From IMG/VR virus record IMGVR_UViG_3300006153_000019, positions 1-58,570 of that record: 58,570 bases of DNA, one strand, 5' to 3'. The position numbers and the translations under genes were made by a program. The notes beneath the pieces are model-generated. The model was given only the letters and a program-made list of their open reading frames with translations, was not told the DNA's origin and made no database searches. Numbering within the stretch: the first letter of the stretch is position 1; each line of letters opens with the position of its first letter. Below, one piece after another: positions 8,051-58,570 of the stretch. The DNA comes from a virus.

Positions 8051-9241
8051 TCACCCAATCAATTTAATCTTTTCTAATTTATCCATCTCTTTACGATTAC
8101 GTTGTGCAGAAACATGGTTGTATATTTCCATGGTTACTGAAATTTTGCTATGACCCATGATATATTGCAATACCTTTGCGTCCATGCCTGCTTCTGCCAT
8201 TCTTGTGCAACCAGTATGCCTTAAATTATGTGCTGATATATGGGGAAGTTCTATATCTATATTGTCCATACTGTTATATTTGTTTACAATATTAAGCAAT
8301 AAGTTGTTTATTGCACTTGGCATAATCGGATTATTATTCTTTGTAGAAAATACAAAATCACTATATCCATCAATCACAACATTTGTTCTCCAGCCTTTAA
8401 GCATTTGATTTTGCTTTTGACCTAGTAAGGCTTTATGCACATATGTTGTCATTGGAATTATTCTAACACCAGAATCCGTTTTTGGACTATCTGCATAAAA
8501 CTTGTATCCTGTACCACACTTCTTATATATTAACTGGTGATTTATACTTATTTCCCTGTTTTTAAAGTCTACATCATTCCAAGTTAATCCGATTGCTTCA
8601 CCACACCGAACCGCTGTGCCTATCATAAATACTATCATTGGATAATATGAAGAATATACTTTACTTTGTTGAATAAATTCCATAAATGCCTCTTGCTCTT
8701 GAACCGTTAATGATATTCTTTTATCTGAATCATTACTAAGCTCTGCCAGACAACCTTTACATGGATTTTTTCTTATTATGTCATCATCAACCGCAAGTTC
8801 AAAGCAAGGAGAAATCATAGAGTTAAATGCCTTTATAGTCGAATATTTCAGACCTCTTTCTAAAAGCAAGCTATAAAATCTTAATATATCTGTTTTTTTT
8901 ATATCACATAATCTTTTCTGTCCAAGCTCATTATTTCGCAAATTTCCATTCCACAAATCAATATAATTTTGCCTAGTAGAATTACAAATCTTCGTTTTCA
9001 GTGATATGTACTTATCAAACTGCTGATTTAATGTGATTTCGGCACCAACTGTATCAATATTATCTGCTATATCCCTACTGATTTTCTTCTCTTTTTTCCG
9101 TAAATCTGACAGATTTTTTGCATACACAGACTTTCTTTTACCAGAATTATCATTATATTGATAGACATACAAACCATCTTTTCTCTGACTTTCGCCATTT
9201 TGTAAAACCCGCCCTTTGTTGTCTTTCCGCCGTACCATCAT
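8051..9241 (-). CDS. int: tyrosine integrase (phage integrase family)
   Basis: 396 aa; ..AHNLRHTGCT.. and ..GHSKISVTMEIYNHV.. (H-x-x-R, H, Y); N-terminal arm-binding-like domain. Confidence 0.9.
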   Translation of the reverse strand: MMVRRKDNKGRVLQNGESQRKDGLYVYQYNDNSGKRKSVYAKNLSDLRKKEKKISRDIADNIDTVGAEITLNQQFDKYISLKTKICNSTRQNYIDLWNGNLRNNELGQKRLCDIKKTDILRFYSLLLERGLKYSTIKAFNSMISPCFELAVDDDIIRKNPCKGCLAELSNDSDKRISLTVQEQEAFMEFIQQSKVYSSYYPMIVFMIGTAVRCGEAIGLTWNDVDFKNREISINHQLIYKKCGTGYKFYADSPKTDSGVRIIPMTTYVHKALLGQKQNQMLKGWRTNVVIDGYSDFVFSTKNNNPIMPSAINNLLLNIVNKYNSMDNIDIELPHISAHNLRHTGCTRMAEAGMDAKVLQYIMGHSKISVTMEIYNHVSAQRNRKEMDKLEKIKLIG

Positions 9242-9550: not shown

Positions 9551-9706
9551 TTATTCTCCTTTTTCGATATATGATTTTACTTCATCAAAAGAAAATTGTG
9601 ATTTTATAAGGTCATGGGTATAATATTTCCATGTTGTCTCCAGGTCATTTCTAAGCAATTCAGACATTTCAACCAAAGTATTTGCTACGGTTTCAATTTC
9701 AAACAT
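9551..9706 (-). CDS. small hypothetical protein (51 aa, below the ORF-track cutoff)
   Basis: ATG overlaps the stop of 9699..11027 (ATGTTTGA); open to the TAA at 9551. Confidence 0.35.
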   Translation of the reverse strand: MFEIETVANTLVEMSELLRNDLETTWKYYTHDLIKSQFSFDEVKSYIEKGE

Positions 9707-11027
9707 TTTTATATTCCGTTCCTTTCAGCTTTTTTTGATACCTTGTAGCAGCTCCATTTGCCTTGGCAGATTCCGCACGCTTAAACCCACTCACCTTAAT
9801 ACGCTCATATTGCTTCCTTAAATCGTGAGTTTCAGCGAATTCATTAAATTTCTTATTCTGCTCTCTCAATTTATATGCAAGTTTATCATAGTCATTCTGC
9901 AAAATATTCTTCACATCTATTTCTGCTGTAAGGTCAATTTCTTTCTGTTTTACCAGAAGTTCCCTTTTTGTTTTTCTGATGGCACGCTCCATAGCTCGTA
10001 ATTTCTGTGAGTTAAGATATTGTTGTTTTGATTCTTCACTATCTATAAGGTTTCCTGCTCCATCAATTAAATTACCGTCTTTATCTCGCCAAGGATTACT
10101 TATTCTTTCATCATACGGACCGAAGCTGTGGCGACAATTATAACCATCCAGACCGTTTGGTGTTCCATATCCTGTAGTTTTTATAAAATCTGGATAATTT
10201 CCAGTATTAGGAGAACCGCCTACTTGCTTTCCATTTTCCTCAAATTTCCCCTTTACAGATGTATATTTTTGTAAATCAGCGTCAGAAATATAGAAAATTC
10301 TGCCTTGCCAGCTCATGTGGTTAGCTGGTTCATCTTTATCTGTAAATCTAGCCCCAGTGTGAGCAGAGGTAATAATTAAATTAGTTCCTGCCTGTTTCAC
10401 ATATTCCATGGTAACTTGTCCCGCCATCTGTGCCATACTGCTTCTGATACAACACAGGACAGCGGACTCTAATGTTCTTTTTGTTCCAGTAGGGTATAAT
10501 ACTTCAATGCCTTTTCCTGCATATCTATCAAGTATGTCACATACTGCTGCTGAATAGCTTTGTACCCCAGCCGCAACCTTCATATCAACTTCATCTAGCA
10601 TATTGATAAGGTCTTTCTGTGCCTTATCCATGGTGGAGCGTGTCAGATTTTGTAATTCCCCCAGGCTCCGCTTATACTGTGCGTTCATAATTTCGATTAC
10701 AACAGGATTTTCTAGCGGAGGCGATACCTTTATCCCTAATGCGTCTAAACTGTCTGAATCAGTCCCCCACGAAGTCAGAACGGCATCTTGCAATATCGCC
10801 CGAAGTTCCTTTCGTGTTAATCCGGTCAATTCTGCCAGCTTCTTTTCAATGGCTTCCCGGCTTTCTCCCATCATGCGGATCTTATAAAGCAGGCGGTCAG
10901 CAGTTCCCGACATTTCCCCGGCGGTCAACAAGCGTCCGGCAATATCAGACATGATAAAGTCCTCCAACTGCCTATATAATTCTATTAAACGCTGTTCTTT
11001 CCCCTCGAAATACTCTGGTTTTAACAT
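9699..11027 (-). CDS. minor head / head-morphogenesis protein (SPP1 gp7 / Mu F family)
   Basis: 442 aa; follows the portal region; ..GYNCRHSFGPY.. motif typical of Phage_Mu_F. Confidence 0.8.
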   Translation of the reverse strand: MLKPEYFEGKEQRLIELYRQLEDFIMSDIAGRLLTAGEMSGTADRLLYKIRMMGESREAIEKKLAELTGLTRKELRAILQDAVLTSWGTDSDSLDALGIKVSPPLENPVVIEIMNAQYKRSLGELQNLTRSTMDKAQKDLINMLDEVDMKVAAGVQSYSAAVCDILDRYAGKGIEVLYPTGTKRTLESAVLCCIRSSMAQMAGQVTMEYVKQAGTNLIITSAHTGARFTDKDEPANHMSWQGRIFYISDADLQKYTSVKGKFEENGKQVGGSPNTGNYPDFIKTTGYGTPNGLDGYNCRHSFGPYDERISNPWRDKDGNLIDGAGNLIDSEESKQQYLNSQKLRAMERAIRKTKRELLVKQKEIDLTAEIDVKNILQNDYDKLAYKLREQNKKFNEFAETHDLRKQYERIKVSGFKRAESAKANGAATRYQKKLKGTEYKNV

Positions 11028-14239: not shown

Positions 14240-15565
14240 TTAATATTTCCACCTCAACCGCCGCCGCAGGAATGTATAGCAAAAATAGCGGTCGCTATCG
14301 AGACAATGATCGAACTCCTTTATCACAGCATCCTCTGGGCTTTCCATATCCCATGAATACAGCCCGTACTCATTTATGGTCGCTTCGCAATCCTCATGAT
14401 AGCTGATTATCCCTCTGTTTAGGAATGTTGTCTGTACCCGTATTCCGTCCAATACGTCATTTTCTGCGCCTTTGGCAATATACTTTCCGTACTTCTTTAT
14501 GACTTCGATAAAAGTAGCCGCTGACGGGTCTACTATGATAAGCGATACCTTTCTATCCCCAATCAACTTACATATTTCTTGATAATGCGTTTCATCATCT
14601 CTCCGTATTCCGGTTTCCTTGCTGTCATAGTAATATTCATATTCCTTTTGTGCGTGCCGCCCATCAAACGCCCACAAGCCAGCAGCAAACGGATTTACGG
14701 TTCCATGGTCCACAGACACTACCCATTCTTTTTCACCGGTCATGTGTTTGTCTTTGACGTGCTTGTCCTCGTCAAACATTGAGTAGACAAGACCTTCTGC
14801 CACGCACCACAGCCCCTGGATGTACCGCTTAAAGAACACGCCCACATACATTCCACGATAACGGGCTTTAATCCTCTCTGACAGAGATAAATTGTCGTCC
14901 ATAGTGAAATGCAGATATACAAGCCGCTTTTCCTCTGCCTTATCAATCCAGTTGACCTTGAACCAGTGACGGGGGCTGTCCGGATTACAGTTAAACCACA
15001 TCTTAGAACCATCAACAGACAATCGCCCAGTTGCCTGGTTTACAAAGGATTCCGGCATAAGCGCCACTTCATCAAAGAAGAAGCCAGCACAGGTTATACC
15101 TTGCACCAAATCCTGTGACCGTTCATCCTTCCCACCAAACAGATAAAAGTAATTTGTCATATCTCCTTTTGATACTATCAAGAGATTGTCAGAGCGTTTG
15201 TCTATCACAGCATATTTCCGGCTTTTTAGCATCAGTTTCAGCCAAAACAGAACATTTCGCCGGAAGGAACCAATGGTCTTTCCTGCCATACCGAAATTCT
15301 GTTGGTTGAAGCTGTTCATAGCCCACAGCACATATGACAAGGACATGGACAGCGTTTTACCGCTCCTGATTGCCCCGTCTGCTATGATTCCGTCCATGTC
15401 CTTTACTGGGCTGGCCGGACACCACCAAGTAAGGACTTTCTTCTGCTTGTTGGAGAATGGCTTGAACTGGAATCCCTGCTTTTGCACCTTTGCTTTCATT
15501 GCGGCGGCGCGTTTTGCAATGCTTTTGCGGATATTTTCTATGCGTTCATCAATGCTGTTTTTCAT
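14240..15565 (-). CDS. terL: terminase large subunit (PBSX/Terminase_3-like)
   Basis: 441 aa; Walker A DGAIRSGKT; follows terS. Confidence 0.9.
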   Translation of the reverse strand: MKNSIDERIENIRKSIAKRAAAMKAKVQKQGFQFKPFSNKQKKVLTWWCPASPVKDMDGIIADGAIRSGKTLSMSLSYVLWAMNSFNQQNFGMAGKTIGSFRRNVLFWLKLMLKSRKYAVIDKRSDNLLIVSKGDMTNYFYLFGGKDERSQDLVQGITCAGFFFDEVALMPESFVNQATGRLSVDGSKMWFNCNPDSPRHWFKVNWIDKAEEKRLVYLHFTMDDNLSLSERIKARYRGMYVGVFFKRYIQGLWCVAEGLVYSMFDEDKHVKDKHMTGEKEWVVSVDHGTVNPFAAGLWAFDGRHAQKEYEYYYDSKETGIRRDDETHYQEICKLIGDRKVSLIIVDPSAATFIEVIKKYGKYIAKGAENDVLDGIRVQTTFLNRGIISYHEDCEATINEYGLYSWDMESPEDAVIKEFDHCLDSDRYFCYTFLRRRLRWKY

Positions 15566-23705: not shown

Positions 23706-23724
23706 AATCTTAGGAGGTGAAAAA

Positions 23725-24075: not shown

Positions 24076-24080
24076 AAAAA

Positions 24081-24110
24081 GCGGGTGGATTATCTTCCAC
24101 CTGCTTTATT
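24081..24110 (+). terminator. rho-independent terminator
   Basis: gcgggtgga-ttatct-tccacctgc then tttatt. Confidence 0.6.
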
Positions 24111-24257
24111 ATGTAACTGCATTACAAATCCATAAATCATCTTAATGTTTTTTTCGTTGTTGATTTCCCCTATCATCTCAACAATTTTCTCCTTATAGGA
24201 GTCACCCCCCCCATACTCCGAAATTTGCCCTATACTGGTTATGCTCTGCTTGTCCAT
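24090..24257 (-). CDS. small protein of the ..MIYGFV.. family (55 aa), cassette a
   Basis: ATG after GGAGGTGGAG; ..EINNEKNIKMIYGFVMQLHNKAGGR; 4 paralogs elsewhere. Confidence 0.45.
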   Translation of the reverse strand: MDKQSITSIGQISEYGGGDSYKEKIVEMIGEINNEKNIKMIYGFVMQLHNKAGGR

Positions 24258-24331
24258 TAACTCCACCTCCGATTGTAATTATATTATTATATGCTCAGCG
24301 AAGGGAGAATATGACAGAAATTCTCCCCCAC

Positions 24332-25207
24332 TTAGTGTAAAATGATGGATTGATTTCCCATCTCCTTCTTAGCAGAAACTTCCACACAGTAAGCAATCAT
24401 CATTTCCTTGATAACGCCCACATAGATTTCCTTTAAGCGTTTATCTGCCATGATAACAGTCAGTTTATTGATGTTGTTTTTCTGTGCTTGGGTGCTGCCC
24501 TTTTCCTCCGCCCGTGCAATAGCGTTTCTGACTTTCTGGTCTAGGCAGCAACCAGCTTTTGTTGTTAATCTCTGGTAGCTCTCATTTCTGGCAGCGGCGT
24601 AACGGTTTCCGAAAGCAAAGGTGAAATTGGGGCTTTCTGCTATCTTGGTGATACAGTGATTCACCCATTGGGTAGTTTCCTGTTCGCTGGCTCCTTTGGT
24701 GAATGTTTCTTTCACCGTCTGAATGGTTTCTGCTTGCTGGTCTACTCGTTCTTCTAACTTATTTTGCCGTTCTGTTATACGTTTCTGTTGAAGTTCTGTC
24801 CGTGCAATAGATTCAGTTAATGCTATCAGTGCTTGGGTTTGCGGAGATAACTCTTGACGGTCAATTTCCTGTTGCTTATGGCGATTGTCTACCTCAATGA
24901 AATACTTTCTAACTTGCTTCCCAATTTCATTTCTTTCTAACATTGCCATTTCTTTAGCGGTATCAAGTTTAATCTCATATTCAATACTGTGCTTTGTTCC
25001 AGATATCTGTTCCTCAATTTTGGGGAGCAGGTCATAATCTATTTTTTCTTTAGCATCACATTCGTTTAATCTACGCTTTACCCATGTTGAGAAATCGGTT
25101 CTTACTAATAAGGATTTATGCAAATCTTTACCATATACAATCTTTTCACCAGTATTTGTTTCATAAACTGGAACGAGTCCATTTTCAATTATTCGCATAT
25201 TTTCCAT
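24332..25207 (-). CDS. antirepressor (AntA-type N-domain plus shared C-domain), cassette a
   Basis: ATG after AAAGGAG; N-terminus IIENGLVPVYETNTGEKIVYGKDLH..TDFSTWVKRRL; C-domain shared with 25646..26500. Confidence 0.7.
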   Translation of the reverse strand: MENMRIIENGLVPVYETNTGEKIVYGKDLHKSLLVRTDFSTWVKRRLNECDAKEKIDYDLLPKIEEQISGTKHSIEYEIKLDTAKEMAMLERNEIGKQVRKYFIEVDNRHKQQEIDRQELSPQTQALIALTESIARTELQQKRITERQNKLEERVDQQAETIQTVKETFTKGASEQETTQWVNHCITKIAESPNFTFAFGNRYAAARNESYQRLTTKAGCCLDQKVRNAIARAEEKGSTQAQKNNINKLTVIMADKRLKEIYVGVIKEMMIAYCVEVSAKKEMGNQSIILH

Positions 25208-25332
25208 TAAAAATCTCCTTTCAGTGTTTGACAACAGCACTAAAGAGAGATATAATAGAAATATCAACCGCTTTAGTGCGTTGGTGGATTGAGAAGTTGG
25301 ATACTTTGCACGGTAACAGCTTCTCTTTTTTG

Positions 25333-25509
25333 TTATTCTTTTACTTTTTGATACTCACTTTCAATACCACGGCGGACAACCTCTGCTTTCTTAACATTTA
25401 AGATTTTTGCAGTTTCCTCTAATTTTATGTAGGTTTCTTCATCAATCCGTGTACGAAGCATTATATCCTTGGTATTTTCTTTAATCTTTTGTCCCATTTT
25501 GGGAGACAC
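25333..25509 (-). CDS. RHH (CopG-like) regulator, cassette a
   Basis: GTG after GAAAGGGGTG; VSPKMGQK..MLRTRIDEETYIKLEE..AEVVRRGIE parallels 4 paralogs. Confidence 0.6.
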   Translation of the reverse strand: MSPKMGQKIKENTKDIMLRTRIDEETYIKLEETAKILNVKKAEVVRRGIESEYQKVKE

Positions 25510-25526
25510 TTTATCACCCCTTTCAA

Positions 25527-25582
25527 ATTGTAGCAACATTTTGAAGTATCTATAATATAACATTGTTGCTACAATCTGTCAA
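25527..25582 (-). promoter_or_regulatory. promoter (TTGACA, 17 nt, TATATT) bracketed by the 12-bp inverted repeat attgtagcaaca / tgttgctacaat (operator a)
   Basis: inverted-repeat arms at 25527..25538 and 25564..25575 flank the -10. Confidence 0.6.
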
Positions 25583-25590
25583 CCCCTTTT

Positions 25591-25626
25591 TTAAAAAAAA
25601 TTTAACCAGCCATAAAATAGCTGGTT
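25591..25626 (-). terminator. rho-independent terminator, copy 1 of a repeated about 50-bp terminator-promoter junction
   Basis: aaccagc-N9-gctggtt followed on the minus strand by AAATTTTTTTT; near-identical copy at 29060..29095. Confidence 0.65.
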
Positions 25627-25645
25627 TCCTGCAAAATAGTCTCTC

Positions 25646-26500
25646 TCATACCCTCTCCCCCCTTTTAACAGAGGCTTCCACACAGTAAGCAATCATCATC
25701 TCTTTAAGAACGGTTTCATAGATGGGCTTCAAAGCCTTGTCGCTCTCGATAATAGTCAGCTTGTTAATAGCATTTATCCGTGCGGCACTAGCTCCAGCAT
25801 TTATCGCTCGTCCCTTTTCCGTCTGCACCCGCTGGTCAAGGCGGCAAGGCTTCTTGCGGTTTAAGCGGTCGTAACTTTCAGCGGTCACAGCTTGGTATTT
25901 CTCGGCTCTGGTTCCTAGATAGTGGTAGTTAGGGCTTTCGACTATAGCGGTGATACACTGCTTCACCCACGGGCGGAAGTCTTTAGTTGTTTCACGACTG
26001 AAAGTATCGGTAATGACTTTTTGGGTATTCTCTATCCTATCAACTTTTTCAGATAATTTCTTTCGTTCTATTTGTTCCTGTGCTACAGCCGTGAAAATTT
26101 TATTGAACATCTGTAATTCTGGTGATAAGTCGGAAATAGAAATATTACTTTCTTTAGAACGAAAATAATTGTTTACTAAATCTCGTTGTACACTCCATGC
26201 TAAATCATCAGATAGGGATTTTACAAGCATAAGATATCCGCTTTCAGTAATAACAGTTTTATCCATGTAATCATTATCAGAGATAGGAAACAAGTGGCTT
26301 GTACGAATTTCGTCAGAGCTTACAATAAAATAATCTTCATCTTTAATGAATCTCTTTTTATTAGAATTAAAGTTTCTTCTTGCGGTTCCGTCTACACGTT
26401 CATGTACAGCGTCGATATCGTTAAAAGTTACTATTCGTTGTCCCTTATACTCTTTAAGCAAAATATCTACATTTCCAATCCGTACTAATTTGTTATCCAT
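25646..26500 (-). CDS. antirepressor (ORF6N N-domain plus shared C-domain), cassette b
   Basis: ATG after GAAAGGAG; KEYKGQRIVTFNDIDAVHERVDGTARRNFNSNKKRFIKDEDYF. Confidence 0.7.
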   Translation of the reverse strand: MDNKLVRIGNVDILLKEYKGQRIVTFNDIDAVHERVDGTARRNFNSNKKRFIKDEDYFIVSSDEIRTSHLFPISDNDYMDKTVITESGYLMLVKSLSDDLAWSVQRDLVNNYFRSKESNISISDLSPELQMFNKIFTAVAQEQIERKKLSEKVDRIENTQKVITDTFSRETTKDFRPWVKQCITAIVESPNYHYLGTRAEKYQAVTAESYDRLNRKKPCRLDQRVQTEKGRAINAGASAARINAINKLTIIESDKALKPIYETVLKEMMIAYCVEASVKRGERV

Positions 26501-26626
26501 AAAATAAACTCCTTTCAAAAAATTGTTCTTGAAAGAAGTCCCTCTGCATGTTACAATATTCCATGCAGGGAAACTTCTCTGTGACTGCATAAGAGTAAGC
26601 TCACTCGCCAAAGTAACCGCTTGCTC

Positions 26627-35656: not shown

Positions 35657-38149
35657 ATGATAAATTTAGAACAAAGATTTAAGGATTTATATAATACATA
35701 TGGCGGAAAAAGTGCCCGTCTAGTTTTCTACAAAAAGCAATATCATCATACTGTATATCCTAGAGCTGGGTTATATCCATCATACCAGTTGTATCCCCAT
35801 CAATATGAGGAAGATGTTGTGGATTTTGTTATAGGTGATGACATGATTCACACTGATACACTGGAAATCACGGAAAGTTTGTGTTCAGATGAAAACCTAG
35901 ACTTTGGAGCATGTGAAGCGGCAAAACTTGAGATAGTGGTTTCGGGTGATAAATATATTCGTCCATTATACCCACGTTCTGGGCTGTATCCGCACGCTGA
36001 TTTATATCCTGCTGAAAGCCTAGTAGGACGTGAATTTGCCCTTGTGGAGTCATTTGTCAGCATAGAGGATAGTTATCCACATGTCGGTCTATATCCACAT
36101 GCTGGTCTTGTTCCCTCTAAAAGTATAGTTCGTGGGTTGTTTACTATAGAATCTATTCCGAAAGAAGATGATAGGGATACCCGCCGAATTATTGCATATG
36201 ACCGCATGAACCGTTTTAATATAGACGTATCTGATTGGTATGAAACAATACCATTTCCTATTACATTAAAGCGATTTCGGGCAGCATTATGCAGCTATGT
36301 TGGTATTCCACAGGTCAATACAAATCTGGTAAATGATGATTTGATAATTGAAAAAACATTAGACACAGAAACACTAAATGGACGGGATTTAATTAGGTAT
36401 ATTTGTCAAATTAATGGCGTATTTGGAAATATCAATTACAATGGTGAATTTCGTTATGTAGTGATTCCAAAAAAGGACAGGATTACAGATACAATCACTA
36501 TATATAAATCTGTGGATTCCGAGGAATTCATAGTACCAGCTATTGATAAAGTAAAAATACGCCAAGAAGAAGCGGACATTGGTGGAAGCAGTACAGGCGA
36601 AGGAAATAACTTTTACATAATTGAAGGTAATTTTTTAGTATTTGGAAAAACTACAGCGCAATTAAATCAAATTGCTAATAACATTAAATCTGTTGTAAGC
36701 GAGCTGGAATATCGTCCAGCTACGATTGTAGGTAATGCAGCCCCATGGTATGAAATGGGTGACAGGATACGGATATCAACAAGTGATGGTGATGTTAATA
36801 CTATCATAATGTATCGTACATCTTCTGGTATACAAGGCCCCACAGATACGATTGAAAGCACTGGCAGTACTGAGCTTAACCAAACATTTAATCTTGAATC
36901 ACAGATAATTCAAACAAAAGGATTAGTAGCGAAAGTTAAATTTACAGTTGAGGAAGTTTCAACAGAGCTAATAAATTTTGAGAAAGAAACCTCCACGAAA
37001 TTTACTCAAACGGCTGAAAAGATTGAATTAGAAGCAAAGCGGGCTACTAAAGCTGAGGGAGAGTTATCTGCTAGAATTACCATAACAGCAGAAGCAATAA
37101 CTACCGAAGTTACACGAGCCACTAAAGCAGAGGGGACACTTAACACACGTATTACCCAGACGGCAGAATCTATAACATCAGAAGTCAACAGAGCTAAAGG
37201 CGAGGAATCAAGATTAAATTCTAGGATAAATCAAACTGCTACTGATATTTCCTTAGAAGTAACAAGAGCTACCAAAGCAGAGGGAGAACTGTCTGGAAAG
37301 ATTACCGTACAAGCTGATAGGATTACATCAGAAGTAACAAGAGCTACCAAAGCAGAGGGAAATTTAAGTAGTAAAATTACTCAAACAGCAGACGCAATAA
37401 ATGTTAGAATTGATAATACGAATTATTCATTAGGGTCCGTAAGCATGGATTTATCACTAACGGCCGAAGAACTAAGGTCAGAAGTTAGCAGAGCTAAAGA
37501 AGCTGAAAGCAGTATAATAAGTCAAACTTCAAGTATGATATCGGCAAAAGTAAGCAAAGGTGATGTATGTTCTCAAATTAACCAAGAGGCAGGACAAATA
37601 AAATTAACAGCTAATAGACTTGTTTTTGACTCTAAAAATATCAAACTAGATTCTAGTGGTATCAAAGTTATAGGGGACAAATTTTCCTTTAGCGTTGATT
37701 CCAGTGGCGTATCTCTTGGAGATTTTGAAGTAAGTGATGAATATGGTCGTAATACATTCCAAAGTAAAGACCAAGTAAATGGTATGTCAACAGCAGAAGT
37801 AACAAGCGGAAAGTACTATTTATGGGCTGGATATGGTAGCGGTAGTTATGGCATTGATTCACTGTTTTTGGTAAATACTTCTCAAGTTCATGCCACTCAT
37901 AATTTTTTTCTGCATGGGCCAGATGGTAAAGGAGGTACTAAGGTGATAAATGTATTTGACGCTATTGTAGCGTTGCAAGGTGGTGGAACAGGAGATACTT
38001 GTCCATCTGACAGTAGTTGCAGCTCTTATTCTAGTTGTAGTTCAAAGACCAGTTGCAGTTCAAAAACTAGCTGCCCAGATGATACTGCAAGCGGATGTTC
38101 TATCAAAGGTTGCATAGCCCTTACATGTGGGCCAGATGATGTAAAATGA
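35657..38149 (+). CDS. tail-associated / tail fibre protein (830 aa) with GLYP repeats, 25-aa fibre repeats and a Cys/Ser-rich C-terminal tail
   Basis: YPRAGLYP, YPRSGLYPHADLYP and YPHVGLYPHAGL motifs; 5 copies of VTRATKAEGxL..IT.TAE.ITSE; position after the distal tail protein. Confidence 0.8.
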   Translation: MINLEQRFKDLYNTYGGKSARLVFYKKQYHHTVYPRAGLYPSYQLYPHQYEEDVVDFVIGDDMIHTDTLEITESLCSDENLDFGACEAAKLEIVVSGDKYIRPLYPRSGLYPHADLYPAESLVGREFALVESFVSIEDSYPHVGLYPHAGLVPSKSIVRGLFTIESIPKEDDRDTRRIIAYDRMNRFNIDVSDWYETIPFPITLKRFRAALCSYVGIPQVNTNLVNDDLIIEKTLDTETLNGRDLIRYICQINGVFGNINYNGEFRYVVIPKKDRITDTITIYKSVDSEEFIVPAIDKVKIRQEEADIGGSSTGEGNNFYIIEGNFLVFGKTTAQLNQIANNIKSVVSELEYRPATIVGNAAPWYEMGDRIRISTSDGDVNTIIMYRTSSGIQGPTDTIESTGSTELNQTFNLESQIIQTKGLVAKVKFTVEEVSTELINFEKETSTKFTQTAEKIELEAKRATKAEGELSARITITAEAITTEVTRATKAEGTLNTRITQTAESITSEVNRAKGEESRLNSRINQTATDISLEVTRATKAEGELSGKITVQADRITSEVTRATKAEGNLSSKITQTADAINVRIDNTNYSLGSVSMDLSLTAEELRSEVSRAKEAESSIISQTSSMISAKVSKGDVCSQINQEAGQIKLTANRLVFDSKNIKLDSSGIKVIGDKFSFSVDSSGVSLGDFEVSDEYGRNTFQSKDQVNGMSTAEVTSGKYYLWAGYGSGSYGIDSLFLVNTSQVHATHNFFLHGPDGKGGTKVINVFDAIVALQGGGTGDTCPSDSSCSSYSSCSSKTSCSSKTSCPDDTASGCSIKGCIALTCGPDDVK
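37034..37408 (+). repeat. five tandem 75-bp coding repeats (25-aa fibre repeat)
   Basis: repeated ..RATKAEGELS.KIT.TAD.ITSEV.. units; approximate bounds. Confidence 0.7.
37979..38146 (+). other. 56-aa Cys/Ser-rich C-terminal extension of the fibre (8 Cys; C-x5-C four times, then x7, x4, x4)
   Basis: GGGTGDTCPSDSSCSSYSSCSSKTSCSSKTSCPDDTASGCSIKGCIALTCGPDDVK. Confidence 0.8.
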
Positions 38150-39474
38150 AAAAAATTCTTGAATATTTAAACAGTATTTATAATGTTCTTGGCTTGCAAG
38201 AATATGACCCAAATAAAAAATACAGAATTAGTCCATTTATTATAAAAGAAGAAGTTGCAAACGGATATTTGATTTATAATACATTAACTTGTGAGATGGT
38301 TTTTGCTACAGATGAAGATTTGACAGAAAGCCAAGAATATTTTGTACTTAGATGGTTCCTAATAGATAAAGATATTGACCCATATAGTATGTGTAAAACT
38401 TTCAAGCGAATATGGACACACATGAAAAAAAGAAAGTATATGGGAAAGATTGCACAGTATGTTATTTTTACCACAACAAATTGTAATGCTCGGTGTAAAT
38501 ACTGTTATGAATCTGGATGTTTAAAAGAGGATATGTCTGTAGAAACGGCACAAAAGGTTGCTGAATATATCAATATGACTACAAATGGGAATGTATCAAT
38601 TCAATGGTTCGGTGGAGAACCGTTATACAATGCACAGGCTATAAATATCATATCTGAAAGATTGCGTGAGAGTTTTTTCCCCTATTCCTCTACAATAGTT
38701 TCTAATGGATATTTATTTGACCAGTGTGACATTAAAACGCTAAAAGACCTGTGGAAACTGGACAAAGTGCAGATTACATTAGATGGTACAGAGGACAATT
38801 ATAATGTTGCTAAAGCCTATGTGGAAGCCTGTGAAAATCCATTTGATAAAGTTCTGAACAATATAGAATATCTAGTATCAAATGATATTGGTGTTACTGT
38901 ACGAATGAATCTATCAAATGACAATATAGACGATATGCATAGTCTGATTGATTTGTTGCATGAACGGTTCGGAAAGTATAAAAGATTTTCTGCCTATTCT
39001 CACCCGTTATTTGATGGTGGGAGCTTCCACGGTGCCTGCACCAAAGAAGAACATAGAGAAATTACAGAAGGATACATAGCTATCCAAGAACATTTAAAAC
39101 GCTGTGGTCTATGTGGTGATTATCCTATTGATAAAGTAAGAATTACAGAATATTGCATGGCTAATAGCATGTCAAGTGTTACTATATCGCCAAGTGGCAA
39201 AGTAGGGCTATGTGAGCATTACCCAGATACAGAGCTAATTGGAAATATTCAAACCGATACAGATAAATTTGATAAAAGGGTAGTATCTGCTTGGCAAGAA
39301 CTATATGAAAGTATAGAATGTCGCACATGCCCATTATATCCGCAATGTGCGAAAATAAAAAAATGTCCAACGAGTGAATGTAATGCAGAGTGGCGGGACC
39401 ACCTAGAATTCCAGATACGGGATTCTATGCGAAATACATATAAAAAATACAAGGAGGAGCAGTCAACCAGATGA
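38146..39474 (+). CDS. radical SAM / SPASM-domain peptide-maturase-like enzyme
   Basis: CNARCKYC (CX3CX2C) at about aa 113; C-terminal ..SPSGKVGLCEHY..CRTCPLYPQCAKIKKCPTSEC (SPASM-like); ATG overlaps the fibre stop (ATGA). Confidence 0.8.
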   Translation: MKKILEYLNSIYNVLGLQEYDPNKKYRISPFIIKEEVANGYLIYNTLTCEMVFATDEDLTESQEYFVLRWFLIDKDIDPYSMCKTFKRIWTHMKKRKYMGKIAQYVIFTTTNCNARCKYCYESGCLKEDMSVETAQKVAEYINMTTNGNVSIQWFGGEPLYNAQAINIISERLRESFFPYSSTIVSNGYLFDQCDIKTLKDLWKLDKVQITLDGTEDNYNVAKAYVEACENPFDKVLNNIEYLVSNDIGVTVRMNLSNDNIDDMHSLIDLLHERFGKYKRFSAYSHPLFDGGSFHGACTKEEHREITEGYIAIQEHLKRCGLCGDYPIDKVRITEYCMANSMSSVTISPSGKVGLCEHYPDTELIGNIQTDTDKFDKRVVSAWQELYESIECRTCPLYPQCAKIKKCPTSECNAEWRDHLEFQIRDSMRNTYKKYKEEQSTR

Positions 39475-39662: not shown

Positions 39663-40202
39663 ATGGAAGAGATTTACACCAGTAAGTTAGCGGACGGAAT
39701 TACCAACGAAACACAAGAACAGGAGCCACTTAGCCTAGAGGAGGCACAAATTAACGCTCTGGCAACTTTAGCCGATACAGCGGGAGCACTTTCCCGTGCA
39801 GTATCAAAAATTGCAGCTTATGTACCTACTCAATGGGTGGATAACAGCGAACCTAGTATTACAGCCGCAAGACTCATGCACATTGAAAACGGTATCAGAG
39901 ACGCTACTAATGCGGTTAATAATGCAATCGACAGCATTACTGAGCTAAACGGCAGAATAAAATATATAACTAAAGGAAGTTTTACTATTGAGATATCAAA
40001 TGTACATGAAACTCGTATCACTGTACCAGGTGATTTTAATAATTTGGATAATTATTTTGTAATAATTTTTCCTGGAGGCTCTGAAATTTTAGATAAAACT
40101 TGGAGCTATTATATACGTGAATCAAATAAAAGTTCATTTGTAGCAGGTTTTTCTATATCTAGCCCAGGAAGTTATTTATTTAAGTATATTGTGATTGCAT
40201 GA
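39663..40202 (+). CDS. fibre-like receptor-binding protein: constant 94-aa N-terminus plus currently expressed C-terminal cassette a
   Basis: SD AAAGGAG; ..WVDNSEPSITAARLMHIENGIRDA.. fibre-type motif; crossover site A inside the gene at codons 95-98 (LNGR). Confidence 0.7.
   Translation: MEEIYTSKLADGITNETQEQEPLSLEEAQINALATLADTAGALSRAVSKIAAYVPTQWVDNSEPSITAARLMHIENGIRDATNAVNNAIDSITELNGRIKYITKGSFTIEISNVHETRITVPGDFNNLDNYFVIIFPGGSEILDKTWSYYIRESNKSSFVAGFSISSPGSYLFKYIVIA
39945..39956 (+). repeat. crossover site A (CTAAACGGCAGA)
   Basis: 20-nt identity ctgagctaaacggcagaata (39940..39959) with inverted site D. Confidence 0.75.
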
Positions 40203-40304
40203 ATCTAAGCAAATTTTCTTAATATTTAAGTATGGAAGGAGTAGTCCCTCAGAATGGAAGCAAATCAACTTTGAAACCGAATAAAATTTATTAGAAATAA
40301 TACA

Positions 40305-40814
40305 TTATGTGGCGGAAAAATATCTCCATTCACTCCATTGTTCACTCGCATTTTTTCTTTTAATAGCTATTTTATCAGACCCAAAGCCAAATACAATCAT
40401 TGCACCATATAGAATATTTTCTGTTACCAACTGTAATACAAATGCTGCATTTCCTCCAAGTTCTGGGGGAAGGTTTGTACTACCTGCTATCGCTTGAAAG
40501 ATTGAATATGATGGTGGATTATCTAAATCATATTTTCCTTTTGGGATTCTGCCGAATTGGGAAAATTCTACTGGTTCTGAATAACTGGGAGTATTTCCTG
40601 CACCACGTTCTAAAGTAAACAATTTATTATCTTGAGTTATAACAATAAATTGTGCTGAATTATCAGTTTGTACATTTGCAAATATACGACACCAAACACG
40701 TTCACTTACCATCGATAATAGTTCCGTAAAATCCATTCCACAATACCAACCACTTTTTGTTATAACATTAAGGCTTTGGTGCGTTAAAATTTTAGAAGAA
40801 AATCTGCCGTTTAG
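40305..40814 (-). other. silent C-terminal cassette b (169 aa, opens at LNGR of site B)
   Basis: frame open from the core through the annotated 143-aa ORF 40305..40736; ends ..EQWSEWRYFSAT. Confidence 0.65.
40803..40814 (-). repeat. crossover site B (inverted)
   Basis: tctgccgtttag; in-frame TAG immediately upstream (40815..40817) on the minus strand. Confidence 0.75.
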
Positions 40815-40823
40815 CTAATTAAA

Positions 40824-40854
40824 TCCGTCTATGAACTTCTGTTTCATAGACGGA
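40824..40854. terminator. perfect 12-bp-stem hairpin insulating site B from the endolysin gene
   Basis: tccgtctatgaa-cttctgt-ttcatagacgga. Confidence 0.45.
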
Positions 40855-40953
40855 CTGTAGAAATAATGCTAATGGTTTTAACACATTGTATAAACGCAAA
40901 AACGATAAAATATAACGAGATATTTTAATTTATTAGTAGAAAGGAATAAATTT

Positions 40954-41730
40954 ATGAATCCAAAAGAAAAGGTAATACATATTGCTAGAAAAGAAGTAGG
41001 ATATCTGGAAAAGAAGTCTAATAAAAACCTAGATGATAAAACAGCTAATGCAGGTAGCAACAATTATACTAAATATGCAAGGGACCTATATCCTAGCTTA
41101 CAGGCACAAGCATGGTGTGATATGTTTGTAGATTGGTGCTTTGTTCAAGCTTTCGGGCAGGTCAAGGCTAGACAAATGCTTGGCGGTGGGTTTAGTGCTT
41201 ATACGCCTACTTCTGCTCAATATTATAAAAATAAAGGAAGGTGGAGAGGATTCCCAGAGGTAGGAGACCAGATATTTTTTAAAAATTCTACCCGTATCTG
41301 TCACACCGGAATTGTTACTACTATATCATCAGAACAAGTGTTTACCATTGAAGGGAATACAAGTGGTGCCTCTGGTGTAATTGCTAACGGTGGCGGAGTA
41401 TGTGAGAAATCCTATCCCTTAAACTATGTTAATATTGCTGGATATGGTCGTCCTGATTGGTCACTGGTAGACACTCCTAAATATGATATAGGTTGGAACC
41501 ATGACAATAACGGCTGGTGGTATGCTGATACACAGTCTAGTTATTATAAATCCTGTTGGCAGGTCATCAATGGACACCGATACTATTTTAATGAAGATGG
41601 TTATGCATTAAAAGGCTGGCAAGAAATTGAGGGGAAATGGTACTATTTTGAGCCAAGAGAGGGACACCCACTAGAATGTGGATTGTATGTCACAGATTCT
41701 ACAGGTATGCAGACAGTAGGCGTTTTCTAA
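40954..41730 (+). CDS. endolysin: CHAP domain plus cell-wall-binding (CW_binding_1-type) repeats
   Basis: ..NNYTKYA..QAWCDMFVDWCF..ICHTGIV..EGN.. (CHAP Cys/His); C-terminal GWW/YYF repeats. Confidence 0.85.
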   Translation: MNPKEKVIHIARKEVGYLEKKSNKNLDDKTANAGSNNYTKYARDLYPSLQAQAWCDMFVDWCFVQAFGQVKARQMLGGGFSAYTPTSAQYYKNKGRWRGFPEVGDQIFFKNSTRICHTGIVTTISSEQVFTIEGNTSGASGVIANGGGVCEKSYPLNYVNIAGYGRPDWSLVDTPKYDIGWNHDNNGWWYADTQSSYYKSCWQVINGHRYYFNEDGYALKGWQEIEGKWYYFEPREGHPLECGLYVTDSTGMQTVGVF

Positions 41731-41744
41731 TCACATTAAGAAAA

Positions 41745-41790
41745 AGGTTGATTTGTGATTCTTTCCGAAAAACAAATCAACCTCTTTTTT
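41745..41790 (+). terminator. rho-independent terminator after the endolysin
   Basis: aggttgatttgt-N15-acaaatcaacct then cttttttac. Confidence 0.8.
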
Positions 41791-41891
41791 ACTACTTTCA
41801 CAAATAATTTCAACTCACATATACTTAGTACAGTATAGACTTATTTGTATAATATAATAAAAATAAGATAATGTCAATATTTAATTCTTAC

Positions 41892-41903
41892 CTAAACGGC
41901 AGA
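41892..41903 (+). repeat. crossover site C
   Basis: ctaaacggcagaat shared with sites A and D. Confidence 0.75.
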
Positions 41904-42461
41904 ATTGGTGATATTAGATATACAGGTATTTCTAGTGACTTAAATGTTGCATCTAATAGTATTGTGCAGGTTATGAAATATAACATAGATACTCTTAATA
42001 CTCCTAAAACAGAAGGTATAACTGTTTCTGGTGATGGAATTGTAATATCATATGCTAATAGTAGATATGGTGTACAAATTTGTGCAGCCCAAGCGATTGA
42101 TACGTTATTTGTTCGCCGAAAACTTGATTCTACTTGGAGTGAATGGAATAACTTAGTTGATGTACCATCTAAACTTTTAATTGGTATCGTTTATAATCAA
42201 GACAATGATTCTATTAAAACATTAGTAAACAAACTTGTTAATGATGTTAAAACAAGAGAAAATGGAGTATATTATTACAGTGGTTCATTTAAAAATCATG
42301 CTGGCGGTTATGCTGCAACAGTCAATAGAATTTCATATCCAGAGGGAACCATTCGATATTATGGCACAATCCAAACATTAACAACATCTCCATATATGTT
42401 TATTTATTCCAGTGACGGAATAGAAAAATTATTTCAACTTACCTCAAATGAGATAAACTAG
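41892..42461 (+). other. silent C-terminal cassette c (189 aa from LNGR)
   Basis: ORF 41871..42461 has an ATG 7 codons before the core but no SD; contains ..STWSEWNNL. Confidence 0.6.
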
Positions 42462-42471
42462 ATTTACTAAT

Positions 42472-42945
42472 TTATTCCTTGAATGAGACATTAAACTCTT
42501 TCCAGGAAGCACCTGCCCAGGATTCATTATATTTTGAGCGCATATAATAATGACCTCCTGTTGCTAATGTAAATCCAAATTGAATCGCATAATTAGCATT
42601 ATTATTCAATGGAAATACTATAAATTGAAACCAACCTGTTGTAGGAGCGTTTTTTAAATTCTCACCAGAAAAAAATCCAAATTTATTGAAATCGTTCATA
42701 TCAGCTCCTTCTGGTATGGCTAAATTTACTTGCATTTCTCTGTCAGTAATAATTAGACGTTCGTTATCCCATTTTCCATTAGTAATATTATTTATTCGAT
42801 ATGAATTATCTGATTTGACGTGAGATAAATGCAATGCAGTTTGTACTGTACTGTCATTTCTTTTCAAAAGTTGTAGATAGGTTGAATCCTGATTATCATT
42901 TGCCCATACTTGAACATTATTTCCTGTTTGTATTCTGCCGTTTAG
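42472..42945 (-). other. silent C-terminal cassette d (157 aa from LNGR)
   Basis: ORF 42472..42999 has only a TTG start; ..AELNGRIQTG..; ends ..ASWKEFNVSFKE. Confidence 0.6.
42934..42945 (-). repeat. crossover site D (inverted)
   Basis: 42931..42950 is the exact reverse complement of 39940..39959. Confidence 0.75.
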
Positions 42946-43048
42946 CTCAGCAATATAATTATTCTCCTTTAATATTTCTAGGCATAGAAAATAAACCAAC
43001 CCTTAAATTGGCTTTTCAAATGTATATTTAATATTTATTTATGCATAT

Positions 43049-44071
43049 TTATGCAACACATTTATAGTATGAACTTCTTACATTTTCCTGCCCCACATTA
43101 CAATAAATTAAGGTAGTATCCATTTTTGTATGACCCATCAGCTTCATTAGTTCTTCAATCTTCATTCCTCTATTCATCATATTGGTAGCAAAGGTCCTGC
43201 GAAATCGGTGCGGGTGGACATTTTCTATCCCTGCCTTTTCGCCAATTTTCCGACAAAGCAATTCTATCCCTGGTTTCTGTATGCGGTTAAATGGCTTCTT
43301 CGTACAGATAAATAATGGCTTATGTTTAATTTCCTCTAAGGTGCTATTTTCTATTGTTACCCTCCATTTTAAATAATCCTTTAAGTGAAATGCTGCTACA
43401 TCTGAAAAATACACAATTCTTTCCTTGTTGCCTTTTCCAGTTACCAGGAATTGTTTTTTAACCATGTCGATATCTCCTATATTTAAGGAGCTTAATTCAC
43501 TGACTCGTAATCCAGTTGAATGTAGAAATTCAATCAATGCCCTATCTCGTACATGCGTACAACATTGCCGTATTGCTTCCATATCCTCAGCGGAAAAAGC
43601 TTTTCTGATGGTCTGCTCAACTTTTGGAGTTTCAATCCGTGATACAGGATTACTATTGATTACCCCCTCATTCAGCAGGAAACTATAGAAACTATTCAAA
43701 TAATGGATTTTATTCTGAATTGTAGACATCTTATTACCTCGCTGTTCTTGTAACATTCCTAAATACCAGCGTAAATCCATGGTAGTTATATCCTTAAATG
43801 GTTTGCCTATAGAAGTACGGCAGTAGCGTAATTCACCTATATATTGTTCTAGCGTCCCATCAGCTCGCCCCGCAATGATTTTAGACGCTTTGAACAGTTG
43901 CATTAACCGGATATCTTCATCAGATTCTATAGGAATAATCTCACATTTTTCTTCTACAATAACCTTATCCCGAAAGGTAATGAATAGAACATTTTTAAGT
44001 TTCTCAATCTGTCCAGAATCTAAAACTTCACTCATTATTTGACAGACTTCTAGTAAAATCTTTTCTAACAT
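43049..44071 (-). CDS. XerC/D-Rci-type tyrosine recombinase adjacent to site D (candidate shufflon invertase)
   Basis: ..HPHRFRRTFATN.. and ..LMGHTKMDTTLIYCNV..; ATG after CAGGGGGA; about 100 bp from site D. Confidence 0.8.
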   Translation of the reverse strand: MLEKILLEVCQIMSEVLDSGQIEKLKNVLFITFRDKVIVEEKCEIIPIESDEDIRLMQLFKASKIIAGRADGTLEQYIGELRYCRTSIGKPFKDITTMDLRWYLGMLQEQRGNKMSTIQNKIHYLNSFYSFLLNEGVINSNPVSRIETPKVEQTIRKAFSAEDMEAIRQCCTHVRDRALIEFLHSTGLRVSELSSLNIGDIDMVKKQFLVTGKGNKERIVYFSDVAAFHLKDYLKWRVTIENSTLEEIKHKPLFICTKKPFNRIQKPGIELLCRKIGEKAGIENVHPHRFRRTFATNMMNRGMKIEELMKLMGHTKMDTTLIYCNVGQENVRSSYYKCVA

Positions 44072-44479: not shown

Positions 44480-45286
44480 CTATTCCATACCCTGGAATTT
44501 CTGCTGTGCGTTCTCATTGTCAATCCTGTCCTGCAACATTACAGGAGCTTTGTAATCATTGATTATTTCAATCGCCTTATCAGTTTGGCAGCGTTTTAAT
44601 GCCTTGTATGACTTAATCTCAAAATTCCTGTAAATCTGACCATAGATATCGCAATATACTGCTTGAACAATGCTTCTGTTGTGGTAGGCATTAGACGCTT
44701 TACCGCCCATAATATGTACTCCCTTAGCTTTTACAGCATTGGTTATTTTCTCTGCTTCAATGGGAAGAATCGGTAAATCATTTTTGAGAGTTTCTAACTC
44801 ATTTTTCACGCTGTCAACACTTTTTTCAACTGCCCCGACTTTCTCATATAATTCGGTCGTTCCCTGTGCTAATAACCTTATCTGTCCCTGTATATCTCCT
44901 GTACTCTCCTGCTTAGGGAGAAATGCTGCCGCTAGTATGTCCTTGGCTTGTAACTGGTAATCAAGCAGCTTCTTGGCAAGACCAGGATTATCTTGTTTTG
45001 TTTTATCTGTTATCTGTATTTTAGCAAGCCACAGAGGAACAAAGTCAATTCGTAATGCTATTGCTTCGTTTGATGGGTCAAATACCCCTGCTTCTAATCG
45101 GAAGCACCCCTGTTTCAAAACCTCGTCTTTCTGTACTTTCTGTACCTGTTTATCTTTTTGCCCCTTAGTCATTCCAAGGGCATTACAGAAATAGCTTACT
45201 CCTGCAAAGATATTTCCTTTTTCATCTTTTGCCGCCATTATGGAATTTCCTAATACGTTCACTGGTTTCACAATTAAATTTTCCAT
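44480..45286 (-). CDS. antirepressor (P22 Ant N-terminal-like plus ORF6C), cassette d
   Basis: C-terminus GGKASNAYHNRSIVQAVYCDIYGQIYRNFEIKSYKALKR parallels 22188..22943; start ambiguous (45301 or 45286). Confidence 0.65.
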   Translation of the reverse strand: MENLIVKPVNVLGNSIMAAKDEKGNIFAGVSYFCNALGMTKGQKDKQVQKVQKDEVLKQGCFRLEAGVFDPSNEAIALRIDFVPLWLAKIQITDKTKQDNPGLAKKLLDYQLQAKDILAAAFLPKQESTGDIQGQIRLLAQGTTELYEKVGAVEKSVDSVKNELETLKNDLPILPIEAEKITNAVKAKGVHIMGGKASNAYHNRSIVQAVYCDIYGQIYRNFEIKSYKALKRCQTDKAIEIINDYKAPVMLQDRIDNENAQQKFQGME

Positions 45287-45419
45287 ATAAAAAATCTCCA
45301 TTCAACAATTTGTGGTTGCCAAACAGAGGTACACAGTGTATAATATTTGTGTACCTAAGTTGGCTTTGGTCAATTTGGTTCTCATAGAGTGTTGTTTTCG
45401 TTGGTAGCGGTATAACACT

Positions 45420-51761: not shown

Positions 51762-52562
51762 CTATGCCGCTTTCTCTATCATGGGATAGATGTCATGCTT
51801 TTTTAATTCTTCATAAAGGAACAATCTTCCCTTCTGCGTCCATTCCGTCTGCATTCTCACGTCTGGCTGTCCGTTGGAGCGTACAATGTCAATCGTCTTG
51901 CTATGAACATATCCCCTGCCCTGGTATTTTGCGTACAGTATCCACTGACCGCCCACCTTGCGCTGTATCCCCAGTTCTGCCAGTTTCTTGTTAAATGCCT
52001 TTGCGGACATTCCGTAATCCTGCGCTATCTGCGTTGTGAGTACGGTTGCCGTACTTTTTAGAATAAGGTCAACATAATTCGCCTTTGGTTCAAGTTCGGA
52101 GATTTTCTTGTCCATCTCGATTGTTTCCTGCTCCAAGGCTTTCTTTTCTTGCTCCAAACGCTTGTTTTTTTCTCTTTCCTCTTTTAACGCCGTAAATGCC
52201 TTGATAGCAATATCGGGGTTTTCGAGAAGTTCATCAACCGCATACATACCATGCTTGCGGATAGCGGGGAGGACTTCTCTTGTTACCCACCGTTTGAATT
52301 TTCTTGCGGACGGAATTTTACTCCCTAAAACAGCGTCATACAGGCCACTCTCGTTAATAATGGTCATATTCTGCTCTCCGCTAGGGGTACTCACTGAGTG
52401 CGTACCCTTATCTTCATCTTCAAGCCTGCGTGTCAAATCGCTTGCCATTCTGTAACCTAAAGCTTTTGCAATGTCGCTCGCCACAAACCACGGTTCATTG
52501 TCAATTACTACTGTCCGCACACTTCCAAACTCGGAATTTTCAAAAATCTGTAATTCATTCAT
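51762..52562 (-). CDS. antirepressor (BRO-N plus KilAC-type C-domain), cassette e, embedded in the structural operon
   Basis: [37 protein letters not shown] (BRO-N); C-terminal ..[24 protein letters not shown].. Confidence 0.8.
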
Positions 52563-58545: not shown

Positions 58546-58570
58546 ATGTCGCGCCCATTTCCTAATGCCT
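58546..58570. repeat. terminal repeat copy (equals 1..25)
   Basis: exact 25-bp identity with the window start. Confidence 0.9.

Follow-up and report, generated by a model that had tools for sequence, protein, structure and literature searches.

Organization of the cassette locus

We analysed a 58,570-nucleotide (nt) stretch of viral DNA, IMG/VR record IMGVR_UViG_3300006153_000019 (referred to below, at its full length, as the window), and report on a locus within it in which a putative tail-fibre gene, a set of silent C-terminal cassettes and a gene for a Xer-like tyrosine recombinase lie among short inverted sites, as in the multiple-inversion systems known as shufflons. The same ~25 nt (ATGTCGCGCCCATTTCCTAATGCCT) are found at positions 1-25 and 58546-58570, and because this repeat stands at both ends, the window represents a circular assembly and a complete ~58.5-kilobase (kb) genome. 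The phage is temperate, its 58.5-kb genome is complete, and the G+C (GC) content of 37.9% is of the low-GC Gram-positive type. On the + strand, genes encoding a tape-measure-like protein of 1254 amino acids (aa), a DUF6711 protein, an 830-aa Gp58-like tail protein and a radical SAM/SPASM enzyme, followed by a 58-aa open reading frame (ORF), lead up to the 179-aa gene that contains the first of the sites. This gene, the fibre gene, is the last structural gene before the endolysin.

Read from left to right, the locus consists of the constant part of the fibre gene, site A pointing rightward into cassette a, cassette b running leftward from site B, a middle segment (X2), site C pointing rightward into cassette c, cassette d running leftward from site D and, beyond a gap of 103 base pairs (bp), the recombinase gene on the - strand (Table 1). 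The cassettes therefore form two convergent pairs, a with b and c with d. Sites B and C enclose the endolysin gene, a point missing from the original prediction for this DNA (made from the sequence alone), and its position there means that cassettes c and d can be reached only by inversions that span the endolysin.

Table 1. Features of the cassette locus and the second recombinase gene of the window (positions in the window; cassette lengths are counted from the L of LNGR)
Feature	Position	Strand	Remarks
Fibre constant part (94 aa)	39663..39944	+	ORF 39663..40202; the system's only start codon and ribosome-binding site
Site A	39945..39956	+	exact core, inside the expressed fibre gene; breakpoint in L022, L035, L043, L045
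Cassette a	39957..40202	+	currently expressed C-terminal domain; 85 aa
Cassette b	40305..40802	-	silent in the window; 169 aa
Site B	40803..40814	-	exact core; rearrangement breakpoint in related contigs
Middle segment X2	40815..41891	+	between sites B and C
Endolysin, CHAP and choline-binding	40954..41730	+	Pfam and PHROGs matches; within X2
Terminator-like hairpin	41737-41791		within X2
Site C	41892..41903	+	exact core; breakpoint in L033, L036, L035, L043
Cassette c	41904..42461	+	silent in the window; 189 aa; weak PHROG tail-fibre match
Cassette d	42472..42933	-	silent in the window; 157 aa
Site D	42934..42945	-	exact core; downstream of the recombinase stop codon
Xer-like tyrosine recombinase, putative invertase (340 aa)	43049..44071	-	PF00589 at 2e-35
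Second recombinase	8051..9241	-	Tn916-type: arm-binding PF02920 and PF00589

The sites share a 12-nt core, CTAAACGGCAGA, which occurs in exactly four exact copies in the 58,570-nt window, with the orientations + - + -. In dinucleotide shuffles, the expected number of core matches with at most one mismatch was 0.16, and 0 of 100 shuffles reached five. The sole other near-match in the window, CCAAACGGCAGA at 55916(-), differs from the core by one mismatch; it was considered as a fifth site and taken as a chance match because the flank consensus is absent. The claim that four alternating cores are present and none elsewhere is therefore borne out, apart from this one chance-level copy. As had also been claimed, sites A and D share 20 identical nt, and this run lies inside a 27-nt inverted repeat of 93% identity.

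Every core encodes LNGR in the frame of the ORF that departs from the site. Cassette b has no start codon and carries an in-frame TAG directly 5' of its core; the ATG of cassette c stands 7 codons before the core, and cassette d has only a TTG, 18 codons before it. On all of these points, as well as on the four cassette lengths and on a recombinase gene ~100 bp from site D, our results agree with the original prediction. A scan for promoters and terminators gave no enrichment.

Conservation of the sites is asymmetric: positions 1-14 are conserved, together with a T at each of positions -7, -4 and -3, and the sequence is variable beyond them on both sides. The site has the format CTAAACGGCAGA(AT) and precedes each cassette. 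The core allele is uniform within each genome, position 6 being C in the window and sister lineages and T at all the sites of the related contigs L003, L038 and L042. This uniformity fits a position 6 located in the strand-exchange spacer, where partner sites must match. Mutated cores in another relative, L022, place the crossover between core positions 3 and 11. Strand exchange would probably occur within these positions, with a 6-8 bp spacer around CTAAAC followed by the conserved arm GGCAGAAT, and the variable left arm, as in the sfx sites of plasmid R64, would favour inversion over deletion.

Alternative arrangements in related phages

Related contigs were retrieved by exact-protein look-ups and homology searches, and their junctions are written here as left flank:cassette. 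The window and two further assemblies, L001 and L002, have the arrangement A:a, B:b, C:c, D:d and a fibre of 179 aa. In L033 and L036, the segment between C and D is inverted (C:d, D:c; 99.1% identical). L035 has the arrangement A:b, B:a, C:h, D:c and a constant-b fibre of 263 aa, and L043 and L045 have the arrangement A:c, B:h, C:a, D:b and a constant-c fibre of 283 aa; in L035 and L043, cassette d is replaced by a different cassette, h. In the more distant relative L022, the segment between A and B is inverted (97.1% identical), giving a constant-b fibre of 261 aa, and P0014, a 207-aa ORF, represents a junction between the left flank of D and cassette c. The breakpoints lie on the 12-nt core in every rearranged contig. 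The alternative junctions that the original prediction had anticipated are therefore present in related public contigs in the form of the constant-b fusion, the constant-c fusion and the C x D inversion.

The genomes in which these arrangements occur are near-isogenic. The constant-b and constant-c contigs match one another or the window at 99.9-100% identity in their flanks. The recombinase region of L035 is 100% identical to that of the window, the first 98 of 98 residues of the L043 fibre are those of the window fibre, and both L043 and L045 match the window at 100% over 872 nt in the segment from a to b and at 100% over 1525 nt in the recombinase region. L035 and L045 have flanks 99.96% and 99.9% identical and a middle segment 100% identical, differ only in the exchange and inversion of the two cassette-pair segments, and are the same phage. 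Similarly, L046 and L043, from assemblies with the neighbouring ENA numbers ERZ13657790 and ERZ13657781, share 7641 nt at 99.99% and differ in arrangement. Overall, the window lineage shows at least five arrangements and the sister lineage (below) three, all on 99.4-100% identical DNA, which indicates that rearrangement outpaces point mutation.

Because the repeats between sites are at most 20-27 nt long and hence shorter than the assembler k-mer, assumed to be 31 for these sources (k127 is part of the name of L024), chimeric assembly should not account for the variants, and we rejected an assembly artefact as their origin. Three independent Logan contigs of a related phage end exactly 577 bp past the endolysin stop codon (L003 at 10951, L005 at 3521 and L006 at 3094). 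These endpoints lie in the reverse cassette beyond site C' and have the look of an assembly-graph branch, which possibly reflects population heterogeneity at the shufflon.

A sister phage, represented by L014, L015 and L023-L029 (at least one of them labelled mouse gut), has a fibre N-terminus unrelated to that of the window and carries the same core at six sites, with the recombinase gene positioned in the middle segment, between sites 2 and 3. Its three arrangements, which share a 99.5-100% identical backbone, are L1:a, L2:e, L3:f, L4:g with a fibre of 194 aa; L1:f, L2:g, L3:a, L4:e with a fibre of 196 aa; and L1:g, L2:f, L3:e, L4:a with a fibre of 300 aa. In a third lineage (L038 5054-6200; L042 200-970), which has the core allele CTAAATGGCAGA, one N-terminus (MRTSRGG...QILSLNGR) is fused to two C-termini, P0016 and P0017, and the only nearby recombinase is a large serine recombinase beside host genes.

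One cassette ORF is listed in 59 blocks of a public assembly collection, which indicates that the system is common. A megablast search of the locus against 50,697 GenBank phage records gave zero matches, and scans of IMG/VR with exact patterns for the constant-core, core-c and core-d junctions gave 0 matches. The exact core-c pattern also had 0 matches in GTDB genomes and so pointed to no host. A profile search with an alignment of the fibre N-terminus returned two distant loci in metagenome contigs and none in viral or genome contigs. As a protein query, the concatenated cassettes b, c and d were insensitive, missing even the window's own ORFs; a single-cassette query worked.

The fibre, the recombinase and competing explanations

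We consider the locus to be, very probably, an active shufflon-type multiple-inversion system carried by a phage. A shufflon has at least three alternating sites, and four are present here and six in the sister phage; it joins a constant 5' part to promoterless in-frame 3' cassettes, and natural fusions of 179, 263 and 283 aa were found; and it exists in multiple arrangements with breakpoints at the sites, which were found here across near-identical genomes from different samples. The proposal that a shufflon exchanges the C-terminus of the fibre is therefore supported beyond its anatomy, by natural variants whose breakpoints fall on the cores. Mechanistically, an armless Xer-like recombinase would pair inverted sites (A x B, C x D, A x D or B x C) and flip the DNA between them. 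Recombination of A with B would put cassette b behind the constant part, and recombination of A with D would put cassette d there or, after an earlier C x D inversion, cassette c. A phage population would in this way make virions with different fibre tips and, most likely, different receptor specificity.

Some of the results weigh against this interpretation. All three assemblies of this exact genome (the window, L001 and L002) are in one arrangement. The constant part had been predicted to be joined to four different C-termini, and the fusions to a (179 aa), b and c are found in nature, but the constant-d fusion was seen in none of the related contigs. No tyrosine recombinase was found within about 5 kb of the sites in the third lineage, that with the CTAAATGGCAGA core. 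The role of the fibre rests on context and domain recurrence, the structure models being too poor to help: the AlphaFold model of the 179-aa protein has a mean predicted local distance difference test score (pLDDT) of 56.6, with two confident helices at residues 25-53 and 68-98, the second of which ends at LNGR, and the model of cassette c (pLDDT 35.8) is unusable. Finally, the middle segment, occupied by the endolysin gene in the window lineage and by the recombinase gene plus one for a 61-aa protein in the sister lineage, keeps a single orientation in all ~14 contigs that span it in both lineages (among them L014, L022, L024-L028, L033, L035, L036, L043 and L045) and was never found inverted, although the A:c state requires a flipped intermediate. 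Conversion of the L035 state to the L043 state, for example, would need A x D and then B x C, via an intermediate with the endolysin segment flipped. A middle segment that is never flipped would imply strong selection or coupled double inversions, and the simplest idea is selection for co-orientation with late transcription.

The varied protein would be a receptor-binding tail fibre, judged from its position in the tail module and from the recurrence of the cassette domains at fibre tips. Its N-terminus is conserved in P0004-P0009 despite their differing C-termini. The cassette domains recur at the C-terminal tips of fibre-like proteins of 680-714 aa and in a Phage_fiber_rpt-bearing fibre that comes after baseplate J, Gp48 and tail-fibre genes. 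More specifically, the C-terminal half of cassette b recurs at the tips of the long tail-fibre proteins P0010, P0012 and P0017, and that of cassette d terminates P0004, the expressed fibre of a related phage. Cassette c is composite, its c1 half ending in a tip-like W-S-E-W and its c2 half being found directly after LNGR in P0004, P0010 and P0017. In relatives, c2 is likewise found recombined with the C-terminal halves of b and d, so that mosaicism at the level of domains exists in addition to the site-specific shuffling.

Alternatively, the varied protein might belong to the head, as a fibre or decoration protein, or might act in superinfection or immune evasion, in which case switching would alter something other than host range. 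The only family match of the constant part is to a 'head fiber protein' PHROG, at a weak E value of 0.0015; it has no Pfam match, and structure searches were uninformative, with nothing significant from either Foldseek or a sequence-profile search of the PDB. We regard this alternative as unlikely, however, given that the gene stands at the end of the tail module beside a lysis gene, that long fibre-like proteins end in the cassette domains, which are also present in a fibre encoded after the baseplate genes, and that some homologues have 'minor tail protein' PHROG matches.

Pfam detects a SAM-like core-binding domain at the N-terminus of the recombinase and a catalytic domain, but no arm-binding domain. 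The enzyme carries a ~60-aa N-terminal extension and ends 17 residues past the catalytic Tyr (...TLIYCNVGQENVRSSYYKCVA). The solved structures closest to it are XerC-like, XerD and XerA, and its NCBIfam scores are all below the equivalog cut-offs (given in parentheses) at 182 bits for XerC (335), 172 for XerD (330) and 209.5 for XerA (220). Thus, of the original assignment to a XerC/D-Rci type, the Xer-like part stands on family and structure matches, but the enzyme is not Rci-like, as it has no Rci-type C-terminal domain. The recombinase was also weighed as the lysogeny integrase of the phage, and this was rejected: it is armless, and a separate Tn916-type PF02920 integrase, which appears to be the obvious lysogeny integrase, is encoded at 8051..9241. 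The window recombinase is 82% identical in protein sequence (78% at the nucleotide level) to the recombinase of the sister phage, which works with the same core, and the gene and its adjacent site align as one block between the two lineages. We infer that the recombinase encoded at 43049..44071 is the catalyst of the inversions.

It might be argued that the inversions are real but that the 340-aa recombinase is not the invertase, being instead a second integrase or an enzyme of Xer-type multimer resolution, and that an enzyme supplied in trans by the host or another prophage flips the cassettes. Recombinases 36-38% identical to it lie between the tail and lysis genes of TPELB_ph1 and of phiCp-D, a phage that also encodes ParM, and neither has obvious inverted repeats in its vicinity; the L038 lineage has sites and no nearby tyrosine recombinase; and one bifidophage inversion locus lacks a flanking recombinase (PMC6109161). 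Such an explanation is nevertheless very unlikely, because the recombinase and its adjacent site are conserved as a unit in two lineages with the same core, because the phage already encodes a canonical arm-binding integrase and because the scores of the recombinase are far below the XerC and XerD equivalog cut-offs. The two recombinases of the cultured clostridial phages (Clostridium phage phiCp-D, L017, 4833-5810; Terrisporobacter phage TPELB_ph1, L018, 4827-5822) are Xer-like, are annotated 'integrase' and are encoded between the holin gene and the final tail gene; in TPELB_ph1, a second gene annotated integrase (527 aa) is close by. In L019 (MT835621.1, a human-faecal phage contig; 5209-8114), a recombinase 37% identical over its full length is ringed by inverted copies of TAAATGATAATTTAGCGGCTTAAC at 5209, 5894 and 8084, making this contig a candidate for a further inversion system.

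Lastly, the notion of a static mosaic, in which the cassettes are left from past horizontal exchange, the 12-mer is a conserved LNG(R) junction between shaft and tip and the rearrangements are rare accidents (by short-repeat homologous recombination, for example), could draw on the LNG-type junctions that are common in unrelated fibres (QLNGD in P0010, INGS or LNGS in P0005 and P0006), on the single arrangement of the three assemblies of this genome and on the mutated cores of some relatives (L022, and the B site in L003 and L033), but it is very unlikely in the face of at least five plus three arrangements on 99.4-100% identical DNA with breakpoints all on the core, of 12 nt that are identical at the nucleotide level despite synonymous freedom, of silent cassettes that remain open and in frame, of a dedicated recombinase that travels with the site, and of the fact that RecA-dependent recombination acts only poorly on repeats of 12-20 nt.

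Genome neighbourhood and known inversion systems

Elsewhere in the window, the Tn916-type integrase gene adjoins genes for head morphogenesis, those for minor capsid protein 2 (9699..11027) and terminase (14240..15565), and the layout is unusual in that head and tail genes are encoded on opposite strands (- and +, respectively). At least five genes of antirepressor type (ORF6N/ORF6C, AntA, P22_AR_N, Bro-N/KilAC) are present at 22188-26611, 44480-45301 and 51762-52562. The Gp58-like tail protein (830 aa; 35657-39474 region, +) has a Cys/Ser-rich C-terminus (...CPSDSSCSSYSSCSSKTSCSSKTSCPDDTASGCSIKGCIALTCGPDD), with 8 of its 13 Cys in the final 60 residues, and its gene is overlapped by ATGA with that for the radical SAM/SPASM enzyme, a maturase of the type that acts on ribosomally synthesized and post-translationally modified peptides. 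The best NCBIfam matches of the maturase are 'rSAM_vs_C_rich' (1e-36), Clo7bot, CefB and PapB, every one below cut-off. The pair is kept in L003, L033 and L043, and the Cys-rich tails vary. These features of the two genes suggest that a phage-encoded peptide maturase may cross-link a virion tail protein, in thioether fashion; a literature search found no paper on peptide-maturase cross-linking of a virion tail protein.

The closest known system, similar in function and architecture by its published description, is the Rin shufflon, which Mavrich et al. (2018, PMC6109161) reported in prophages of Bifidobacterium breve and B. longum as the first tyrosine invertase encoded by a phage, and which has since been described in Eggerthella lenta prophages (2022, PMC8778435). 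Its tyrosine invertase is armless and XerD-like, the constant gene is named Rc and the variable cassettes Rv, and the rix crossover sites are asymmetric and 11 bp long (PMC6109161). The statement in the original prediction that the known phage fibre switches use serine invertases is therefore outdated, as Rin uses a tyrosine recombinase (PMC6109161, PMC8778435). In both systems, a phage-encoded armless tyrosine recombinase flanks a receptor-binding-protein locus and a canonical integrase has a gene of its own elsewhere; several promoterless C-terminal cassettes are combined with a constant N-terminal gene; short asymmetric sites (11 bp in Rin, 12-14 bp here) stand at the fusion point; and the evidence of activity consists of differing arrangements in related genomes. 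However, the hosts of Rin are high-GC Actinobacteria, whereas the phage analysed here has 38% GC and a CHAP/choline-binding endolysin. The sites are unrelated (rix, TTCCCTAACCC, against CTAAACGGCAGA here), rix having no exact copy in the window and a single match with one mismatch, at 58435, which is at chance level. In addition, the constant part is of 168 aa in Rin and of 94 aa here, and the cassettes here form two convergent pairs around a segment occupied by the endolysin gene in the window and by the recombinase gene in the sister phage.

The R64/IncI shufflon (Rci, sfx, pilV) similarly uses multiple inversion by a tyrosine recombinase and exchanges the C-terminus of an adhesin by means of convergent partial ORFs. 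The sfx sites have a conserved spacer and one conserved arm, the other arm being variable, an asymmetry believed to limit recombination to inversion (PMC11852207). The sites described here share asymmetry of this type, with positions 1-14 conserved and a left side that is variable save for the T at -7, -4 and -3, but their sequence is unrelated to sfx, and the conserved stretch is about 14 nt as against 19 nt. Rci has an extra C-terminal domain (PMC11852207), whereas the window recombinase is without one and has its extra residues at the N-terminus. The R64 target also differs, being the pilus adhesin of a conjugative plasmid and not a phage fibre. Gin of Mu, Cin of P1 and Min of p15B are serine invertases that act with an enhancer and Fis, Min being a multi-segment system. 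As at this locus, site-specific inversion by these enzymes exchanges the C-terminal part of a tail fibre, and there it alters host range, but Gin, Cin, Hin and Min are resolvase-type serine recombinases (PF00239), in contrast to the PF00589 tyrosine recombinase beside the segment here. The hsdS inversion systems (pneumococcal ivr/CreX and 'epigenetic invertons', PMC7672463) resemble the locus in that Xer-like tyrosine recombinases shuffle in-frame half-gene cassettes by way of short inverted repeats in low-GC Gram-positives, and differ in their target, which is the DNA-specificity subunit of a cellular defence and not a virion protein. A full-text literature search found no such system described in phages of Firmicutes. 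The locus is therefore of the same kind as Rin, which has already been described, and is the first that we could find in a low-GC Gram-positive phage.

The 12-14-nt site, shared by unrelated fibre N-termini in differing phage backbones, and the Xer-like invertase may together form a portable adaptor, by means of which unrelated co-resident phages could trade fibre tips by site-specific recombination in trans. Hints of this come from cassette a, which is 98.8-99.2% identical between the window and the sister phage, where it is attached to an unrelated N-terminus, with homology that starts at the first base of the core, against only 78% nucleotide identity for the recombinase genes of the two phages; from the endolysin-c-d block, which has an overall identity of 97% in the two lineages, rising to 100% from about 41500 onward, and ends exactly at core D; and from the same constant flanks, which bear d in some genomes and h in others. 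Judged from such comparisons of sequence, this idea is a tentative one, and we consider it somewhat less likely than not.

The results have consequences for viromics in that one phage may show up at such a locus as several 'strains' or as broken contigs. The 14-nt asymmetric site and the 340-aa Xer-like enzyme, a putative invertase, make up a fully specified and apparently active pair and hence a candidate compact inversion tool, and the cassettes, as naturally varied fibre tips attached to a single constant anchor, are useful for studies of host range. Overall, the results indicate that fibre shufflons driven by tyrosine recombinases are not limited to actinobacterial prophages and also occur in low-GC Gram-positive gut phages and, if the adaptor idea were true, gut phages would draw on a communal library of fibre tips.

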